Of a stretch of 64,000 nucleotides of DNA, positions 3,727-46,751 are shown piece after piece. Under the pieces are notes generated by a model. It was given only the letters and a program-made list of their open reading frames with translations. It did no database searches and had not been told where the DNA came from. How positions within the stretch are numbered: the stretch's first letter is position 1; each line of letters opens with the position of its first letter. The stretch covers positions 773 to 64,772 of the forward strand of contig CAIMIV010000003.1 of NCBI GenBank assembly GCA_903841185.1, written 5' to 3'. This stretch comes from an uncultured bacterium. Lineage in GTDB: Bacteria > Patescibacteriota > Minisyncoccia > Moranbacterales > UBA2206. Position numbers and translations under genes: made by a program.

Positions 3727-4440
3727 TTATACCGCAATATCTCCGCCGAAATAGATATCTTTAATTTTTGTATTTTCCAAAATTTCCTTGCCGCCCTCCA
3801 GGGCAACTTCTCCGCTTTCTAAAACATACGTCCTGTCCGCTATCTCGATAGCCTGTTTCGCATTTTGTTCGACCATAAGAATAGCGATGCCTTCATTTCT
3901 GATTTCTTCAATCTTTGCAAAGATCTCTTTCATGGTCTTCGGGTCTAATCCCAGAGAGGGTTCGTCCATGAGCAGCAGCTGTGGATTTTGAATCAAGGCT
4001 CTTGCGATAGCTAGTAACTGCTGTTGCCCCCCGGACAGATTTCCCGCGAGCTCCCCCTGTTTGCTCTTGAGTATGGGGAATTTTTTAAAAACGTCGTTTA
4101 TATTTATTTCCGCCACTTTTTGGTCTGTAATTACAAAAGTGCCCATCTGCAGATTTTCCAAAACGGTCATGCTCGCAAAAACTTGCCGTCCTTGCGGAAC
4201 AAAGCTGATTCCGAGCTCAATTAACTCATGCGTCTTCAATTTGGTTATATCCTTGTCTTTGAAAAATATCTTACCCTCAAAAATATCAGCCAAACTGAAA
4301 ATACTCTTAAGGACTGTCGACTTGCCAGCCCCATTGGGTCCGATCAAGGCGACTATCTCGCCAGCGCCAACATTCAAATTGAGCTTGTGCAAAACCTCAA
4401 TGCCATTATAGCCAGCTTTTAAATTTTGTATTCTAATCAT
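3727..4440 (-). CDS. livF: Branched-chain amino acid ABC transporter ATP-binding protein (LivF-like)
   Basis: Walker A 'GPNGAGKST', 'LSGGQQQLLAIARAL', 'LLLMDEP'. The track start at 4497 is a TTG; the ATG at 4440 ('MIRIQNLKAGY') is the more likely start. Confidence 0.8.
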   Translation of the reverse strand: MIRIQNLKAGYNGIEVLHKLNLNVGAGEIVALIGPNGAGKSTVLKSIFSLADIFEGKIFFKDKDITKLKTHELIELGISFVPQGRQVFASMTVLENLQMGTFVITDQKVAEININDVFKKFPILKSKQGELAGNLSGGQQQLLAIARALIQNPQLLLMDEPSLGLDPKTMKEIFAKIEEIRNEGIAILMVEQNAKQAIEIADRTYVLESGEVALEGGKEILENTKIKDIYFGGDIAV

Positions 4441-4543
4441 ATATGCATATTTTACCACTAAAAAATTGAAGCGCCCATAGTAATATGGACGCTTCAATAA
4501 CGGAAAGGCCTAGGTTTGCTGTAGGGCTAACGATTAGTTAACG

Positions 4544-5695
4544 CTATTTTCCAGCATAGACTGGTGCCATTTTTTCCAGTTTGAATAATCTAATCAATAT
4601 TCCGTCTATGTTTCCGTCCTCTTTCATAGAGAGGTTTCCGGTTACGCCCTTATAATCTTTAACTTTTTGCAATAGATCAATTTTTTGGGCAATCCGTTTT
4701 TCTTTGGTTGTTCCGTTGACTTCAGGCAAAACTTTATTGATCAGTATATTTGCTGAATCGTAGGCCTGATCGCTTGCAACAAAGACATAGGGAGTGCGAC
4801 CAAATTTAGTTTTGAAATCCTGATAAAATTTGGTTGCTACCGGGTTTGTTTCAAGTGGGGCATAGAAAGAGAAATGAATCCCATTAATTGCGCCCTTGGA
4901 TGCTTCCTGGATTGACGGAGTTGTCGCAACAGTAGGAATGGTCAAGTATGGCTGATTCATATTTAAATCTTTTGCCTGCTTGATAGCAACTCCAATCTCA
5001 TCATATCCCAGGAACACAATCGCATCCTTATCTTTGAGCTTTAGCAAGGTTGTCTTAAAGTCATTTGTTTGTGCCGGATAACTTTCAACTTGAACGCTTG
5101 CGTTATTTCCCATTCTGGCTACAAATTCATCTGAAACGCTTTGCATAAAATTATCAACGGTGGAATGTACGATTCCGATATTTTTGTATCCTTTTTCTGT
5201 GGCATAGTCAGCTATAACATCAGCCAAATCTTTTGTTTCTTTGGCTATACAAAAGATATTATTACCAGTGTCGGCAAGGTCCTTGTCGCAATCAAGAGGA
5301 TCGATGATTAAGACATTGTCTTTTTTCGCTTTCTCAGCTACCGCCATAACTCCGCCGTAGGTAGACATGATAATTGTCTCAACTCCATCTACGTTTACTA
5401 GTTTCTCGTATGCGGTGACTGCTTTCGCTGTATCGTATTGATCATCTTCGGTTATCAATTTAATTGTTCTTCCATTTACTCCTCCCTTGGCGTTTGCTTG
5501 TTCAATAGCAATTTCCATTGAGCTAACTGCTTCCGTTCCCAGCACTGCCACGCCACCAGAAAGGGGTCCGATATAGCCGATCTTGATGGGCTCACTGGCT
5601 ACGGACTGTTGTTTGTTTTCTTGCGAAAACCATGCGAGACTTGCGATTAGAAGTAGGACTACTATTCCAATACCAACTTTCGTTGTTTTGTTCAT
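4544..5695 (-). CDS. livK: Branched-chain amino acid ABC transporter substrate-binding protein (LivJ/LivK family, PBP type 1)
   Basis: Signal/TM N-terminus, then 'IKIGYIGPLSGGVAVLGTE...ANAKGGVNGRTIKLITEDDQYD', typical of Leu/Ile/Val-binding proteins. Convergent with livG/livF. Confidence 0.75.
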   Translation of the reverse strand: MNKTTKVGIGIVVLLLIASLAWFSQENKQQSVASEPIKIGYIGPLSGGVAVLGTEAVSSMEIAIEQANAKGGVNGRTIKLITEDDQYDTAKAVTAYEKLVNVDGVETIIMSTYGGVMAVAEKAKKDNVLIIDPLDCDKDLADTGNNIFCIAKETKDLADVIADYATEKGYKNIGIVHSTVDNFMQSVSDEFVARMGNNASVQVESYPAQTNDFKTTLLKLKDKDAIVFLGYDEIGVAIKQAKDLNMNQPYLTIPTVATTPSIQEASKGAINGIHFSFYAPLETNPVATKFYQDFKTKFGRTPYVFVASDQAYDSANILINKVLPEVNGTTKEKRIAQKIDLLQKVKDYKGVTGNLSMKEDGNIDGILIRLFKLEKMAPVYAGK

Positions 5696-6009
5696 ACGAT
5701 TATTGCTTAAAAATTATTAACTACCAACATTATGCCGCATTGATGTTGCGGCTATTAATCTCCCAAGAACGGCTAAATTTGTGAGATGTTTTTCAAAGAA
5801 CTGGTGTCAGATGTTTTATCTCCGCTCTCATCTAGACTACGAATTATAGCACTTTTTTGGCAACTAGTCCATAGTTGACGACTAGAGCGGAATTATCGGC
5901 CAGTGGGCTATGTGATGTTTTGGCTTGTTACTTGCAATATTTGCTATGATATGCTACAATTTAGTTGTTGTCATAATTGGTGACAGTAACTAATAATAAC
6001 CGTAATTTT

Positions 6010-6750
6010 ATGCATATAGAAGAATTGATCAATGCTGGACTCAGTGAACATGAGGCCAAAGTCTATTTGGCGGCGCTGGAGTTGGGCGAAACCAGTGTTT
6101 ATCGCTTGGCCAAGAAATCTGGTGTCAAAAGGACTACCACCTATTTGGCGGTGGAATCTTTGAAGGGGAAAGGCTTGATCAGCGCTTTTCAGCGCAACAA
6201 CGTCACGCTTTGCTATGCGGAAAGCCCAAAGAAGTTGGCGGTGGCGCTGGAGGAAAAGAAAAAATCCCTAGACCGGATTATGCCGGAACTGTTGGCGTTT
6301 AATAATCTGATGGATAAAAAGCCTAAGATCAAATATTTTGAAGGGCGAGAGTCCTATAAAGAGGTTTTCGACGATGTCTTGAAATATCCTGGCACGGAAA
6401 TGCTGGCAACTTTCAATGAAAAGTTTTGGAATCGAGACAATTATTTTGTCGGCTATTTTATGCCGAAACGCAAAGAAAAGAAGATTTGGGCACGAGAACT
6501 GTTTCAGGATAGTCCGGAATTGCGAAATCTGAAAAACGAGGAACGGCTGCATTTTTTCCAAAGCAAGCTGGTGCCGGGAGATAAATTCAAAATTGAGATT
6601 GAAATGGTCATCTACGGGAACAACAAGGTAGGATTTGTTTCCTATGATGAAGAGATTGCGATTATTATTGAAAGTCAAAAAATCCATGATACGCAAAAAA
6701 GTTTTTTTGAAACGATCTGGAGCTTGTTGCCAGAGCACAAGAGTAAATAA
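6010..6750 (+). CDS. TrmB-family HTH transcriptional regulator, paralog P2
   Basis: 'LSEHEAKVYLAALELGETSVYRLAKKSGVKRTTTYLAVESLKGKGLI' plus the C-terminal 'IAIIIESQKIHDTQKSFFETIWSLL' box. The track start 5977 is a TTG; the ATG at 6010 is preferred. Confidence 0.7.
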   Translation: MHIEELINAGLSEHEAKVYLAALELGETSVYRLAKKSGVKRTTTYLAVESLKGKGLISAFQRNNVTLCYAESPKKLAVALEEKKKSLDRIMPELLAFNNLMDKKPKIKYFEGRESYKEVFDDVLKYPGTEMLATFNEKFWNRDNYFVGYFMPKRKEKKIWARELFQDSPELRNLKNEERLHFFQSKLVPGDKFKIEIEMVIYGNNKVGFVSYDEEIAIIIESQKIHDTQKSFFETIWSLLPEHKSK

Positions 6751-13174: not shown

Positions 13175-13224
13175 GCCTTCGTGGCCCGTCTCGCCCGAGG
13201 CGTGCTCGCCGAGGCGGATGGAAT
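13175..13224 (+). ncRNA. Conserved tRNA-Leu-upstream element, copy 3 (diverged, with internal 14-nt tandem duplication)
   Basis: GCCTTCGTGGCCCGTCTCGCCCGAGGCGTGCTCGCCGAGGCGGATGGAATGG shares TGGCCC...CGCC..GAGGC..GGATGG with copies 1 and 2. Its first 7 nt complement the 3' acceptor CGAAGGC at 13442. Confidence 0.35.
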
Positions 13225-13285
13225 GGTATATTCACCCCGCACCATTTCACATTTCGCAGTAAACTGGTATGATATGTTTAGTTGG

Positions 13286-13367
13286 GGGAGTATGGTGGAA
13301 TGGTATACACACATGCTTGAGGTGCATGGGTCGTAAGACCGTGAGAGTTCGAGTCTCTCTATTCCCA
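13286..13367 (+). tRNA. tRNA-Leu (anticodon GAG)
   Basis: Acceptor GGGAGTA/TATTCCC (one G-U), anticodon loop TTGAGGT, long variable arm, T-loop TTCGAGT. Confidence 0.8.
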
Positions 13368-13384
13368 CGAGTGGAAAATGGTGC

Positions 13385-13449
13385 TGGGGCAAGCATGCAA
13401 GAGGCACATGGATTGTAAGGTCGTGCGAGTTCGAGTCTCGCCGAAGGCA
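13385..13449 (+). pseudogene. 5'-truncated/degenerate tRNA-Leu(GAG)-like copy
   Basis: Intact T-arm GCGAG-TTCGAGT-CTCGC and 3' acceptor CGAAGGC-A. The anticodon region 'CATGC AAGAGGC ACATG' is degenerate (no U33) and no 5' acceptor strand is present locally. Confidence 0.5.
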
Positions 13450-13536
13450 CCCAAAGCCTGCCCGATTTTCTTGCTTTGTTATTTATTTAAAGATAGTTAT
13501 CGGCATACTAGATAATAAAGGCAGAAGATGGGGCAG

Positions 13537-13770: not shown

Positions 13771-13840
13771 TAATATTGAAGTTATCCACAAGATAATTAC
13801 GAACCAGTGTGCTATGATAAAAATGTAGTAACGCAGGTTT

Positions 13841-14503
13841 ATGAAAATAAAAGAGGAAAAAAATAAAGCATTTGATCTCCGGAGGGAGGGCAAGAGCTAC
13901 AGGCAAATAGCAGAGCTTTTGGATATAAGTAAAAGTACGTTATCTGGTTGGTTTAGGGATGTTGATTGGTCTCAAGATATCAAAAAACAGTTAATTGAAA
14001 AGTCAAAAGGGGCTAGTCGAAAAAGATTGCTTCAGCTAAATGATCTGAAAAAGAAAAGATGGAGCGAATGTTATGTAAGAGCAGAAAAAGAGGCAATTAC
14101 TGAATTTGAAAATTTAAAAAAAGACAAATTGTTTATAGCGGGCATGGCATTATATTGGGGAGAGGGAGATAAAATATGGAAGAATGGCATTATTAGAATA
14201 TCCAATACAGATGAAAAGATGTTGCGAGTGTTTAATGAATTTTTACAAAAAATTTGCAAGGTGGAGAGAGAAAAAATTAGAGCGGGAATTTTACTGTATC
14301 CAGACTTGGATTCGGAGGAGCGCTTGAAATTTTGGAGTGAAAGTATTAGAATATCTAAGGAGAGGTTTTTTAAATCGACTGTGATACAGGGAAGGCATAA
14401 AACTAAAAAAACAGGCAGCGGAGTGTGTATTGTTTCAGTAGGTGATAAATATTTGAAAAAGAAGTTATTGACTTGGCTAGATTTGTTCATTGGAGAATTT
14501 TAA
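13841..14503 (+). CDS. HTH-domain protein with LAGLIDADG-like core (possible free-standing homing-endonuclease-like gene)
   Basis: N-terminal 'GKSYRQIAELLDISKSTLSGW' HTH; central 'LFIAGMALYWGEGDK' resembles a LAGLIDADG motif. Sits between the tRNA-Phe/Val and tRNA-Gly genes. Confidence 0.4.
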   Translation: MKIKEEKNKAFDLRREGKSYRQIAELLDISKSTLSGWFRDVDWSQDIKKQLIEKSKGASRKRLLQLNDLKKKRWSECYVRAEKEAITEFENLKKDKLFIAGMALYWGEGDKIWKNGIIRISNTDEKMLRVFNEFLQKICKVEREKIRAGILLYPDLDSEERLKFWSESIRISKERFFKSTVIQGRHKTKKTGSGVCIVSVGDKYLKKKLLTWLDLFIGEF

Positions 14504-14506
14504 CAA

Positions 14507-14578
14507 GCGGGTATAGTATAATGGTTATTACATCAGGTTGCCAATCTGGATACGGGGGTTCGATTCCCCCTACCCGCT
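14507..14578 (+). tRNA. tRNA-Gly (anticodon GCC)
   Basis: Acceptor GCGGGTA/TACCCGC, anticodon loop TTGCCAA, T-arm GGGGG-TTCGATT-CCCCC. Confidence 0.85.
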
Positions 14579-14585
14579 CAAAGTT

Positions 14586-14616
14586 AAAAAGTTCTAGGTT
14601 TAGCCTAGAACTTTTT
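14586..14616 (+). terminator. Rho-independent terminator after tRNA-Gly(GCC)
   Basis: AAAAAGTTCTAGG-tttag-CCTAGAACTTTTT. Confidence 0.7.
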
Positions 14617-14625
14617 GATTTGCTA

Positions 14626-14667
14626 GCGGGATGGGGAATCGAACGGGTAGGAATGAGACAATCCCGC
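14626..14667 (-). pseudogene. Decayed antisense tRNA-like remnant
   Basis: Minus strand reads GCGGGAT...CCCG-TTCGATT-CCCC-ATCCCGC: paired 7-nt ends and a T-loop but a non-pairing T-stem. The same 20-nt core GGGATGGGGAATCGAACGGG recurs at 46641. Confidence 0.4.
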
Positions 14668-14750
14668 CCAAACGGGATTAGTCGAATGTCGATGAATGTG
14701 AATGAATGAATATTCAGCGCTACCCAGGGCAAGGATCCTCAGCGACGACG

Positions 14751-14770
14751 GAATTCCCCCTACCCGCTCA
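14751..14770 (+). repeat. Direct repeat of the tRNA-Gly 3' end (partial copy R2)
   Basis: GAATTCCCCCTACCCGCTCA equals the last 19 nt of tRNA-Gly(GCC) plus CA. Confidence 0.6.
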
Positions 14771-14876
14771 GAATCTAAAAAGCTCTCCCTCGTGGAAAGT
14801 TTTTTGTATGCTTAGAAGGCATGTTTGAGCTGGATGTGATATAATAAGACTATAAAAATAATAATAGACCCTTCTA

Positions 14877-15476
14877 TTGTTTATGAATATAATAAAAGAA
14901 GATTTTCTACGAAAAATTGGCGTCATACCAAGATATACTGAGATTAGATTATTTTTGATGTCGTTAACTTTTTTGCTGGTTTTCGCAACAAACTCAACAA
15001 TTCGAAATAAATATTTGACTGATATTGTTAATGAAGATGCGGGGCTTGTTCTCTTGGTTATTTTTCTTGGTATATGGTTATCGATTTATAACGCTTTCTC
15101 ACCTAAGAAGATTACAGAATTTTCAAAGATATTTTTATTGATTTATGCGATTGTTATTAATGTAATTATTAGTGCGGAGGCTTATAATTATATTTCAAAG
15201 AATGAGCACGGATTATATATCATTTTTCCAATTCTAAATGTTGTGAATGCCTTTGTATTATGTATGCTTTTTAAAAGGAATATAATGACTACTAATTCAA
15301 TTATTGAAAAACAAACAAAATATTCAGAGATAATAGTCGGTTCTATATTAGTTTCTGCGATTTTTTTTGTAAGTCAATATATTTTAGGTAATTATTGGGC
15401 GGTCACTTTTTCAATCTGCTTAGCCTACGCCTCTAATTTAAATGAGTTGATTAGTGATATTTTTAGCAAAAAATAA
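14877..15476 (+). CDS. Hypothetical polytopic membrane protein
   Basis: About 5 hydrophobic helices and no motif. Lies inside the segment bracketed by tRNA-Gly 3'-end repeats. Confidence 0.4.
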   Translation: MFMNIIKEDFLRKIGVIPRYTEIRLFLMSLTFLLVFATNSTIRNKYLTDIVNEDAGLVLLVIFLGIWLSIYNAFSPKKITEFSKIFLLIYAIVINVIISAEAYNYISKNEHGLYIIFPILNVVNAFVLCMLFKRNIMTTNSIIEKQTKYSEIIVGSILVSAIFFVSQYILGNYWAVTFSICLAYASNLNELISDIFSKK

Positions 15477-15544
15477 TTGGTCATGATAATGATTCAATAA
15501 AAAGTATGTTATAGTAAGTGTGTAAATAAATTAAAAATATATAA

Positions 15545-16162
15545 ATGGAAAATCAAATACAATTTACATCTCCGCAGCAAAGTGAGTCTAAATCAAATAA
15601 GAAATTATGGATTATTTTATTGATTTTAATTCCATTGATTTTTTTCATGGCTATCGGCACTAAGGTTTTTCTTGATTTGCGAGCCTCAAGAGAAAAAGCA
15701 AATCTTATTATGAATAAGCAAAAAAATATAACGCCCGAGAGTTTGCAAAGAGATCAGCAAGAATATATGAAGAATTATAACTCAACTGGTAAATCAGAGT
15801 TTTTTGATAAGTGTATAAAGGGATGTCAGTCGCCGGGAAGCAGTGGCTGTAATAATAATTGTCTCACAAGAGAGGCTGTAGAAAACAAGGATATGTCCGC
15901 ATGTTTTTTGATTGATAATTCTGGGGATGTTGATGGAAAAGATAGTGGTAAGGCGGGGTGTCAATCCAGCGTTGCCGCAGCTACGCTCGAATTAAATAAT
16001 TGTGAAAAAATAACCTATGGAAGCGACTCTATAAAAGAATATAATCGGTATGATTGCTATGAGAAAATTGCTAGGGCGAAAAAGGATGTATCAATTTGTG
16101 AAAAAATCTCGAAGAGCTATTTATTAGGAAATATGTACAAGAATTGCATAGCAATTAAATAG
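15545..16162 (+). CDS. Hypothetical secreted Cys-rich repeat protein
   Basis: N-terminal TM/signal, then recurring 'C(x)3-4I' units (SACFLI, NNCEKI, YDCYEKI, SICEKIS, KNCIAIK). 14 Cys. Confidence 0.4.
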   Translation: MENQIQFTSPQQSESKSNKKLWIILLILIPLIFFMAIGTKVFLDLRASREKANLIMNKQKNITPESLQRDQQEYMKNYNSTGKSEFFDKCIKGCQSPGSSGCNNNCLTREAVENKDMSACFLIDNSGDVDGKDSGKAGCQSSVAAATLELNNCEKITYGSDSIKEYNRYDCYEKIARAKKDVSICEKISKSYLLGNMYKNCIAIK

Positions 16163-16209
16163 GTTGAATTAACTACATTTTTCTTTAAGTCAAGCTTAAG
16201 CTACGGTTT

Positions 16210-16227
16210 CCCGCTCAAAGTTAAAAA
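16210..16227 (+). repeat. Direct repeat of tRNA-Gly 3' end plus downstream (copy R3)
   Basis: CCCGCTCAAAGTTAAAAA is identical to 14573..14590. A terminator hairpin follows. Confidence 0.6.
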
Positions 16228-16256
16228 AACAAAGCTCTTCCGAGCTTTGTTTTTTT
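16222..16256 (+). terminator. Rho-independent terminator
   Basis: ACAAAGCTC-ttcc-GAGCTTTGT followed by TTTTTTT. Confidence 0.7.
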
Positions 16257-16460
16257 GTTGTGTCTAAGTGTGCCTGTGGATAAGTTGATAATGGGCTTTA
16301 GATAAAGCATGTTGATAAGGCGGGGAAAATGAGGTATGATGGAGAAACCCTCAATTGGAGTAAAATACAAAAAATGAGGATTAATTAAAATAAATAATCT
16401 CAAAAATGCGCCTTAGTTAGGGATAAAATGACTATTGGCATTGGCGAATAAATAAAAAAT

Positions 16461-46518: not shown

Positions 46519-46590
46519 AGCGGGTGTCGTATAGTGGCTATTATATCAGCCTTCCAAGCTGAGGAGGGGGGTTCGATTCCCCCTACCCGC
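46519..46590 (+). tRNA. tRNA-Gly (anticodon TCC)
   Basis: Acceptor GCGGGTG/TACCCGC (G-U), anticodon loop CTTCCAA, T-arm GGGGG-TTCGATT-CCCCC. Confidence 0.85.
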
Positions 46591-46596
46591 TCAAAA

Positions 46597-46628
46597 TTTA
46601 AAAATCCCTAGGTTTATCCTAGGGATTT
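46597..46628 (+). terminator. Rho-independent terminator after tRNA-Gly(TCC)
   Basis: AAAAATCCCTAGG-tttat-CCTAGGGATTTTT. Same architecture as the terminator at 14586. Confidence 0.7.
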
Positions 46629-46640
46629 TTATTTTATTAG

Positions 46641-46660
46641 AGGGATGGGGAATCGAACGG
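46641..46660 (-). pseudogene. Decayed antisense tRNA-like remnant (paralog of 14626..14667)
   Basis: GGGATGGGGAATCGAACGGG is identical to the core at 14631. No intact acceptor partner. Confidence 0.35.
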
Positions 46661-46751
46661 GCCACGTCGCTCGCGAGTAATGCCAAGTCCTCGCTTGAGT
46701 TTATGGATAAATTACGTTAGAATAGTAAAATAAATAAGGAATATTTTTCAC

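Follow-up and report, generated by a model that had tools for sequence, protein, structure and literature searches.

A probable layered insertion hot spot and a family of structured tRNA-trailer elements at tRNA-Gly(GCC) in an uncultured Moranbacterales bacterium

The 3' ends of transfer RNA (tRNA) genes are classic att sites, and those used by tyrosine integrases fall in T-loop or 3'-end sublocations of these genes. Group I introns occur in the anticodon loops of tRNA genes, and the omega-RNA guide of IS200/IS605-type elements is read from the flanking target. The free-standing GIY-YIG endonuclease SegB of phage T4, whose gene lies in a cluster of tRNA genes, has the T-loop motif GGTTCRANTCC as its recognition site and drives the co-conversion of neighbouring tRNA genes (PMC2330249), and group I introns are also found in the T-loops of transfer-messenger RNA (tmRNA) genes (PMC11915505). 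The present study concerns tRNA-Gly(GCC), the last gene of a tRNA cluster (Leu(GAG), Phe, Val, Gly) in a 64,000-nucleotide stretch of DNA, hereafter the window, from an uncultured Moranbacterales bacterium (GenBank assembly GCA_903841185.1, contig CAIMIV010000003.1, positions 773 to 64,772). Behind this gene, a structured element of about 125 nucleotides (nt), here termed the class A tRNA-trailer element, and two small genes stand between repeats of the tRNA 3' end. Herein, we propose, with a probability of roughly 0.6, that the last tRNA of the cluster is a hot spot at which insertions have been layered, and that the repeats of the locus come from two different things. The anatomy of the locus is well supported; for the mechanism, we infer either a recombinase acting in trans or the homing-type repair of a break in the T-loop.

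Repeats and extra DNA behind tRNA-Gly(GCC)

The tRNA-Gly(GCC) gene (14507-14579, plus strand, like the repeat copies, hairpins, elements, promoter-like sites and open reading frames of the window described below) is called in agreement by ARAGORN and Rfam (66.9 bits). A repeat finder returned a single direct-repeat family (D2), comprising three same-strand copies of the 3' end of this gene. Copy 1, the reference copy (ATTCCCCCTACCCGCTCAAAGTTAAAAA, 14563-14590), runs from position A58 of the tRNA to its end and includes the 12-nt trailer CAAAGTTAAAAA. Copy 2 (14753-14780) is 86% identical to copy 1, repeats the tRNA from A58 to its end (first 18 nt exact) and then continues into a different trailer, CAGAATCTAAAA. 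Copy 3 (16200-16227) is 75% identical to copy 1 and carries the resident trailer; its exact part is the final 18-mer CCCGCTCAAAGTTAAAAA at 16210-16227, which consists of tRNA positions 68-73 plus this trailer and is shared with copy 1 at 14573-14590. The exact 18-mer occurs twice in the window, compared with 0.01 occurrences expected from 100 shuffles, and a third occurrence with two mismatches lies 3' of tRNA-Gly(TCC) at 46586. These recurrences had been noticed in the original prediction, and the placement given there, with GAATTCCCCCTACCCGCTCA at 14751 and a copy at 16210 identical to 14573-14590, proved right. Three further features were absent from it. First, the direct repeat with copy 2 begins exactly at T-loop position A58. 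Second, an inverted (antisense) copy of tRNA-Gly positions ~72 to 53, denoted t' (GCGGGATGGGGAATCGAAC, 14626-14644, from the repeat finder), lies within a 41-nt, 76% inverted repeat (I1) centred on the first hairpin, and provides the 5' strand of helix P1 described below. Third, the ORF that abuts the tRNA on its 5' side is likewise missing from the closest relative.

Behind each direct copy come a hairpin and a T-run (14586-14616, ~14775-14805 and 16222-16257), in keeping with the terminator hairpins originally described. Hairpin H1 (AAAAAGTTCTAGG / CCTAGAACTTTTT, 14586-14616) is terminator-like and part of inverted repeat I1, and its core CTAGGTTTAnCCTAG is seen again ahead of Gly-linked elements at 46600-46625 of the window and in three of the loci fetched for comparison (L numbers), namely L007, L040 and L190. 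Hairpin H2 with its T-run (14775-14805) is terminator-like in its fold and matches in position the terminator 3' of tRNA-Gly(TCC) in L065, whereas H3 (16222-16257) is the resident tRNA-Gly terminator, orthologous to L001 8780-8818. Public gene calls place a 62-amino-acid open reading frame (ORF) across the 3' half of tRNA-Gly and the element (14521-14709; L053 8977-9165), and this ORF is almost certainly spurious.

For comparison, we fetched 52 loci that encode a relative of the ribonucleotide reductase (RNR) whose gene lies downstream. The closest genome found, L001 (RNR 92% at the amino acid level), has the same RluD-L19-Leu-Phe-Val-Gly(GCC)-RNR order, with the layout Leu-Phe-Val-(29 bp)-Gly-trailer-terminator-RNR, and its tRNA-Gly is directly followed by CAAATTAAAAA, the terminator and the conserved TGTGGATAAGT block upstream of RNR. 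Because L001 8769-8785 aligns by blastn both to window 14573-14590 and to 16210-16227, positions 14591-16227 of the window represent 1,637 bp of extra DNA (14573-16209 being an equivalent description), edged by an 18-bp duplication of the target. Thus, the segment proposed as an insertion is indeed absent from a relative. As in a tRNA island, an empty attB is present in L001 and exact tRNA 3'-end repeats (at 14573 and 16210) flank the insert. However, neither an integrase nor a remnant of one was found in the insert or within ~10 kb of it by Pfam and PHROGs searches of both ORFs and inspection of the genes called on either side, as the original prediction had stated for the insert, and the insert matched no phage or plasmid DNA. 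In composition, too, the segment deviates, with 32.6% GC overall and 27.6% and 34.1% GC in its two genes compared with 42.5 +/- 3.4% in 39 long ORFs.

The two genes bracketed by the outer repeats correspond to the predicted membrane-protein and secreted Cys-rich genes. The first, memb199 (14883-15476, alternative TTG start at 14877), encodes four hydrophobic segments; the second, cys205 (15545-16162), encodes one N-terminal hydrophobic segment and 10 Cys, all within the C-terminal 115 residues. Two overlapping promoter-like sites, which are consensus matches only, lie 5' of memb199 at 14836-14893. Neither protein matched a Pfam or PHROGs family, as expected from the earlier description of a cargo with no known function, and among 5.8 billion proteins memb199 has three homologue clusters besides its own and cys205 has one. 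The cargo genes are therefore near-orphans with a patchy distribution. A parallel arrangement is observed in L065, where tRNA-Gly(TCC) is followed by a terminator, a memb199 homologue (70%) and a cys205 homologue (67%). The L065 spacer aligns with the window spacer running from copy 2 to memb199, and the motif TGTGATATAAT in the region of the promoter-like sites of the window aligns with TGTGGTAAAAT in L065. In other words, the series of trailer, hairpin, T-run, TGTGATATAAT, memb199 and cys205 that starts at copy 2 in the window is the same series that is present in L065.

A family of structured tRNA-trailer elements

The class A element of the window (14626-14752), recognised by a covariance model, by pattern relatives and by covariation, consists of the P1 5' strand, UCGAAC, helix P2 (GGGUAG/CUACCC) around a junction with P3 and P4, then AGGGCAA, P5 and GCGGA. 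The whole unit at 14591-14752 comprises hairpin H1, t' and the core (162 nt). Copy 2 is the obligatory tRNA-tail copy of this unit, and the inverted copy and copy 2 are the ends of the ~125-nt element; therefore, the repeats record at least two kinds of event. The insertion at a tRNA-Gly hot spot without an integrase, as originally predicted, is upheld by the empty site of L001, whereas the three nested att scars left by successive integrations and decay are not.

This arrangement is not confined to the window. When 124 tRNAs in the fetched loci and the window were scanned, the 3' end of 13 of them, including Gly, Leu, Phe and Val, was found to recur 70-190 nt downstream, and the stretches between tRNA and tail copy held conserved cores of at least three types. 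A 22-base gapped pattern derived from the window and L045, TCGAACGGG-N55-85-CGCTNCCCNGGGCAA, retrieved 95 metagenome-contig loci, with 91 of the 97 hits being clear class A members, and was absent from the 2.9 million viral contigs of IMG/VR. A same-strand tRNA ends 18-178 nt upstream of 60 pattern hits (within 75 nt in 59 of them), and at least 14 tRNA species are represented (Glu, Gln, Tyr, Trp, Gly, Leu, Ser, Ala, Arg, His, Asp, Asn, Met and Lys). The tail of the local tRNA is copied behind the element in 50/60 cases, 19-66 nt past the GGGCAA motif. The order in the family, 5' to 3', is the tRNA, its trailer, usually a terminator-like hairpin, an antisense strand, the core (UCGAAC, P2 (GGGCAG...CUGCCC) enclosing P3 and P4, AGGGCAA, P5, GCGGA) and the tRNA again from A58.

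In 32 of 41 distinct elements, A58 is the exact position at which identity begins, and identity between tRNA and tail copy is 28% at positions 52-57 and 91-96% at positions 58-73, the latter being partly inflated by the selection of cases. In the trailer, identity amounts to 57% and 43% over the first 16 nt and to ~35% beyond. The duplication varies in length across the family (7-83 nt), some copy pairs are identical for stretches of over 50 nt, and L211, L230 and L040 contain tandem or partial second units. The antisense 5' strand covers tRNA positions 53-65, in the T-loop and T-stem (median 13 nt, maximum 18). The repeats are tRNA-derived, so that the idea of terminator paralogs unrelated to the tRNA can be set aside. 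Two other origins were considered and rejected: a retroviral-type primer-binding site, as the antisense strand spans positions 53-65 rather than the 3' 18 nt and has no CCA complement, and copying from a mature tRNA, as the tail copy has CCA only where the gene has CCA and the identity runs into the trailer.

Several variant members were also observed. A truncated class A paralogue lies behind tRNA-Gly(TCC) in the window (46593-46665), with the same hairpin type followed by GGGATGGGGAATCGAACGGG, after which similarity is lost and no downstream tRNA-end copy follows. No upstream tRNA or tail copy was detected for the class A elements of L186, L195, L197, L215, L249, L263, L274 and L276, which may be decayed loci or represent a different arrangement; in L276, a T-arm is fused directly to the antisense strand. 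In L254 (tRNA-Tyr), two copies of the terminator hairpin lie in a long direct repeat, and the sole difference between them is the inversion of the loop (gtcctgg vs aggacgg), which is a signature of intra-hairpin template switching.

The fold was tested on an alignment (A2) of 33 diverse members with five specified helices. In these helices, 89.5% of the cells are paired, compared with 34-42% when the partners are slid by 1-3 columns, and 21 of 32 pairs have changed on both sides. Double-change cells number 182, compared with 66 +/- 7 in shuffles, and the covariation score of 0.442 (0.179 in shuffles) was reached in 0/500 shuffles. The junction strands UCGAAC, AGGGCAA and GCGGA are invariant. 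Helix P1 pairs the antisense strand with copy positions 58-65, and its covariation is not independent evidence, because both strands derive from the same tRNA. A covariance model (R1) scores the window element (14629-14769) at 108.6 bits, this sequence having been in the training set; independent matches are six in the genome loci of relatives, found behind tRNA-Gly in L040, L045 (twice) and L007 and also in L006 and L026. The element thus has a conserved, RNA-like fold with covariation beyond the controls, and this strong conservation at the RNA level suggests that the core also does something as RNA, with a guide or splint, a tRNA mimic and a processing signal as candidate roles.

Known RNA families gave no match. 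In Rfam 15, no family matched the element or the class B and C examples described below, with terminator-like noise as the only return at gathering and permissive thresholds (E up to 10). The group I intron model RF00028 did not match the element, which ends in ...GCGGA where such introns have an omega-G, and whose 5' side ends at G57 in place of the U at -1. Hammerhead, hepatitis delta virus (HDV), twister and RNase P-like motifs were rejected, the likeness being visual and without model support. A scan of IMG/VR with the 14-mer GGGAATCGAACGGG gave 118 matches, near the chance level by our own estimate, and was uninformative.

Two further core types were encountered. Class B (...AAAGGGGTCGGGAAAACGGGAGTTTTCCCG...CTAGAGGGCGGAAGTCCTATAGAGCGCAGG...) stands behind tRNA-Gly(GCC) and tRNA-Phe with the same logic at its ends (L020 6424-6612, L042 4095-4278 and 5217-5401, L049 1897-2081 and L021 6829-7003, all minus strand), and bears a faint visual resemblance to RNase P CR-I that has no model support. 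In class C (...GAGAAAGCCGGAG...CGAGGCGGGGTCGAGA...GTGAC), the tail copy seems to start at C56, not A58, and many compensatory changes can be seen by eye in a 9-bp hairpin whose loop is CTGC; this class is found with tRNA-Leu(GAG) in L015 (401-564), L016 (~6400-6710, two in tandem), L018, L024, L025 and L049, and with tRNA-Val in L041 (6492-6613). The tRNA cluster of L016 also carries two group I introns (RF00028, 63 and 57 bits; 5278-5485 and 5997-6242, minus strand), which probably interrupt Met and Phe tRNA genes that ARAGORN did not report there.

Candidate enzymes, proposed history and alternatives

A 220-amino-acid ORF, HTH220 (13841-14503), ends 3 nt before tRNA-Gly. Its N-terminal transposase-type helix-turn-helix (HTH) is followed by a long helix, and its C-terminal domain is of the alpha/beta type, with an invariant G107-E108-G109; the AlphaFold model of the protein is confident (pLDDT 91.8). 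The family has at least 482 homologues, from Moranbacteria, Parcubacteria, Paceibacterota or Patescibacteria where a source is given. Every scored homologue in the fetched loci abuts a same-strand tRNA, secondary partial matches in L260 and L040 having been left unscored: this is observed for Gly, Met or Trp tRNAs in nine further fetched loci and again in L280-L285, and homologues of 78% and 70% stand 3-5 nt before tRNA-Gly(GCC) at the same position in the cluster. In L284, two paralogous genes of the family occur in one cluster (4149-4808 and 5001-5663), one before tRNA-Phe and the other before tRNA-Gly(GCC). Searches of Pfam, PHROGs and Protein Data Bank (PDB) sequences and profiles, and Foldseek comparisons with PDB and BFVD, returned for HTH220 only the HTH or non-significant matches, including weak Foldseek matches to DOD/intein endonucleases (E 0.1-1). 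No LAGLIDADG domain was present among the 25 most-matched Pfam families in 41 members, which were HTH families only, and an hhalign comparison with a possibly inexact I-CreI sequence was negative. A perfect DnaA-box-like 9-mer, TTATCCACA, occurs upstream of HTH220 (13783-13791), and its complement TGTGGATAA (16276-16284) opens the conserved block upstream of RNR in the window, L001, L007 and L044.

Other proteins occupy the same place elsewhere. Among the 60 class A loci with a tRNA, nine have a GIY-YIG-only ORF of 82-103 amino acids abutting it. ORFs of this kind (L198, L204, L233, L234, L236, L246, L271, L279 and others) encode 70-103 amino acids comprising the catalytic domain only (PF01541 at E 5e-15 and 3e-12), and mostly end between 14 nt inside and 18 nt before the tRNA that bears the class A element, the distance being 77 nt in L236. 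In three of the 60 loci (L194, L231 and L242), a 23S-rRNA-IVP (four-helix-bundle) protein precedes tRNA-Trp. HTH220-family and GIY-YIG-only genes lie a few to ~150 nt upstream of tRNA genes, and we regard both as candidate tRNA-gene endonucleases.

Additional changes distinguish the cluster from that of L001. Of the 73 positions of tRNA-Gly, 12 differ between the two genomes, and all of these fall between positions 9 and 54, whereas tRNA-Val and tRNA-Phe are identical. HTH220 is absent from L001 and stands where L001 has a 29-bp spacer; the gene abutting the tRNA is a third insertion, and the cluster is being rewritten around its tRNA genes. At the other end of the cluster, tRNA-Leu(GAG) (13286-13368) has an acceptor stem unlike that of its L001 orthologue, the 3' half of an L001-type tRNA-Leu lies downstream of it at 13394-13450 (80% direct repeat, D3), and a tRNA-Leu 5'-like fragment, GCCGAGGCGGATGGAATGGTATATTCAC, is present at ~13209-13237. 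It looks as if a new tRNA-Leu gene had been dropped into the old one at 13185-13450.

Herein, we propose the following history. First, copy 1, the inverted copy and copy 2 would belong to the small element (hairpin plus ~125-nt folded core, 14591-14752), with the displaced tRNA tail ending up behind it; because the 3' end of the element joins a second tRNA copy from A58, the real tRNA gene stays intact. Second, copy 3 would represent the original end of the locus, with the resident tail of tRNA-Gly(GCC), its trailer and its terminator now displaced by 1.6 kb. Third, the cargo would be a block made up of a tRNA-Gly trailer, terminator, promoter, membrane protein and Cys-rich protein, which in L065 directly follows a tRNA-Gly(TCC). 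Two courses would both be compatible with the sequence. Either one 1,637-bp mosaic from a tRNA-Gly(TCC)-type locus may have entered behind tRNA-Gly(GCC) with an 18-bp duplication (history A), or the 162-nt element may have entered with a duplication of the 28 nt between A58 and the trailer end, in keeping with the rule of the family, followed by the entry of a 1,447-bp gene block into the downstream repeat at CCCGCTCA (history B). Consistent with history B, the deletion of 14771-16217 restores a perfect 28-nt repeat of 14563-14590. As for the mechanism, enzymes acting in trans, encoded elsewhere or next door, might act on the T-loop or 3' half of tRNA genes by cutting or recombination, and the resulting breaks or strand exchanges might be repaired from element-bearing templates, with the duplicated tail serving as right-hand homology for copying the insert in while keeping the tRNA functional. 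HTH220 here and the GIY-YIG-only proteins elsewhere would be the candidate enzymes. The predicted junctions are ...CCCCCTACCCGCTCAAAGTTAAAAAAACAAAGCTC for the empty site, ...ACGGTTTCCCGCTCAAAGTTAAAAAGTTCTAGG for an excised circle and ...GCGGAATTCCCCCTACCCGCTCAAAGTTAAAAAAACAAAG for the intermediate of history B, in which the element is present without the genes.

Several observations weigh against this proposal. No nuclease or recombinase matches HTH220 significantly, in either sequence or fold, an ORF beside the tRNA is missing from about half of the element loci, and nine family members have neither an upstream tRNA nor a repeat. A sharp-edged duplication of 18 bp (or 8 bp) is expected of a conservative site-specific recombinase and not obviously of break repair. 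The strong covariation indicates selection on an RNA or single-strand fold, which neither a passive scar nor a DNA parasite would need, and the assignment of the tRNA strand is weakly supported (31 G.U vs 18 A.C). Moreover, no outgroup polarises the comparison with L001, which might have lost the segment by recombination between the repeats.

Among the alternatives, the one that survives best, though we consider it unlikely, is that the element is a host non-coding RNA gene that is not mobile, consisting of a tRNA-like T-arm with a giant loop plus the acceptor 3' strand. Its RNA would be matured by tRNA-processing enzymes, the tail copy would be a functional part, and the 1.6-kb difference would reflect indel turnover. 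Strong covariation and invariant junction strands would be expected of such a gene, as would the GNRA-type loops, the G.U excess on the tRNA strand and the preservation of positions 58-73 of the copy while the trailer decays. However, presence of the element differs between close relatives at the same tRNA (window vs L001), its ends match locally each time across the 14 or more tRNA species, tandem and truncated copies exist (including that at 46593-46665), and a terminator-like hairpin usually separates tRNA and element. Since a function is compatible with mobility, this explanation is only partly a rival.

We give less credence to the original view that all three copies are att scars of successive integrations by tyrosine integrases whose genes have since been lost, for which the circle junction would be GGTTT-CCCGCTCAAAGTTAAAAA-GTTCTAGG. 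Direct repeats of a tRNA 3' end do flank foreign AT-rich DNA, and the exact, sharp-edged 18-bp identity resembles an att core. Yet no integrase or fragment was found in the insert or its surroundings, nothing ties the repeats to a tyrosine integrase, and copy 2 and the inverted copy are accounted for by a 91-member family of ~125-nt structured elements that leave no room for a gene. The overlap region in the T-loop would also need to be shared, whereas identity at positions 52-57 is only 28%.

It is similarly doubtful that the window arrangement is ancestral and that L001 lost 14591-16227 by recombination between the 18-bp repeats. A comparison of two genomes gives no direction, and the interval between tRNA-Gly and RNR is variable among relatives: L007 holds an element and a partial one, and L044 holds a small membrane ORF together with a partial class A unit and an element of another type, in both cases between tRNA-Gly and the conserved TGTGGATAAGT block, while unrelated genes follow HTH220 and tRNA-Gly in L280 and L284. 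However, the composition of the segment is deviant, its near-orphan genes are found in unrelated contexts, and the repeats would still need an origin, so that the timing of the event would change and not its nature. Composition and patchy distribution favour a gain in the window over a loss in L001.

More speculative still is the idea that the ~125-nt element is the RNA part of a new homing system directed at the T-loop of tRNA genes. The antisense strand to positions 53-65, together with the sense copy from A58, might then guide or splint a cutting or joining reaction at G57/A58. In one form, the RNA would be a small ribozyme based on the conserved three-way junction (UCGAAC / AGGGCAA / GCGGA); in the other, it would be the targeting RNA of the domain-only nucleases abutting tRNAs (85-amino-acid GIY-YIG proteins and the HTH220 family). 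In both, the element would be able to move between tRNA species and re-acquire matching ends. Finally, it is hardly credible that the locus arose in assembly or binning, as a chimeric contig or through the collapse of a repeat, despite the metagenomic source and the capacity of repeats to mislead assemblers, because 13 contigs from several samples (ENA, NCBI and Logan assemblies) carry the same arrangement and gene order with 100% identical proteins, and the element family occurs in ~100 unrelated contigs.

Meaning and comparison with known systems

In its two orphan genes, this locus resembles an ordinary small island behind a tRNA. What is unusual is the family of elements, together with the ORFs abutting tRNAs. 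The elements form a large RNA-like family without an Rfam 15 match, with ~100 copies retrieved by one narrow pattern and locked to A58, and could reveal either a hitherto unseen route by which DNA settles in tRNA genes while leaving them whole, or a novel RNA of the Candidate Phyla Radiation that mimics tRNA. The HTH220 family and the GIY-YIG-only proteins are candidate enzymes open to direct test. Such elements also pose a risk for the annotation of metagenome-assembled genomes, in which false partial tRNAs, spurious ORFs and misleading att sites may result from them. No description of the element or of the tRNA-abutting ORFs was found in the literature, of which coverage was incomplete, so that a prior description is possible.

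Compared with known systems, likenesses and differences are observed in each case. First, as in tRNA-integrating islands and prophages, foreign DNA stands behind a tRNA, the 3' end is duplicated so that the gene remains intact, and a relative has the empty site. The present locus differs by the lack of an integrase, by an insert of 1.6 kb and by an inner unit of ~160 nt with a conserved fold; in addition, the duplication of the element starts at A58 without the rest of the T-loop, and its 5' end is antisense to the target. Second, as with SegB, a small nuclease-type gene is wedged between tRNA genes, and the 5' part of the adjacent tRNA-Gly differs from L001 whereas Val and Phe are identical. 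However, HTH220 is not recognisable as a GIY-YIG, LAGLIDADG or HNH protein, the GIY-YIG proteins of sister loci consist of the catalytic domain only and are known from sequence, and SegB loci, unlike this one, have neither a structured element nor a duplicated tRNA tail.

Third, a structured RNA at a precise T-loop position, with a 5' segment complementary to both sides in the manner of an internal guide, recalls group I introns, but the element has a core of ~100 nt, lacks the P3-P9 architecture and ends in A rather than G, and splicing is unneeded, the tRNA being intact upstream. Fourth, miniature inverted-repeat transposable elements (MITEs) and IS200/IS605 elements are similarly protein-less, short and present in many copies, with paired ends and flank-derived sequence beside a conserved scaffold. 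In the class A family, by contrast, the paired ends follow the local tRNA, the duplication runs from A58 with variable length instead of being a short fixed target-site duplication, the RNA fold bears a signature of selection, and neither TnpA nor TnpB is found near the element. Finally, tRNA-like RNAs such as minihelices, the tRNA-like domain of tmRNA and YrlA (PMC4201824) share with the element a T-stem-like P1 and the acceptor 3' strand of a real tRNA. Unlike these RNAs, most members of the family lack the acceptor 5' strand (t' median 13 nt), a 100-nt domain replaces the T-loop, and the tRNA identity of the element changes with its neighbour.

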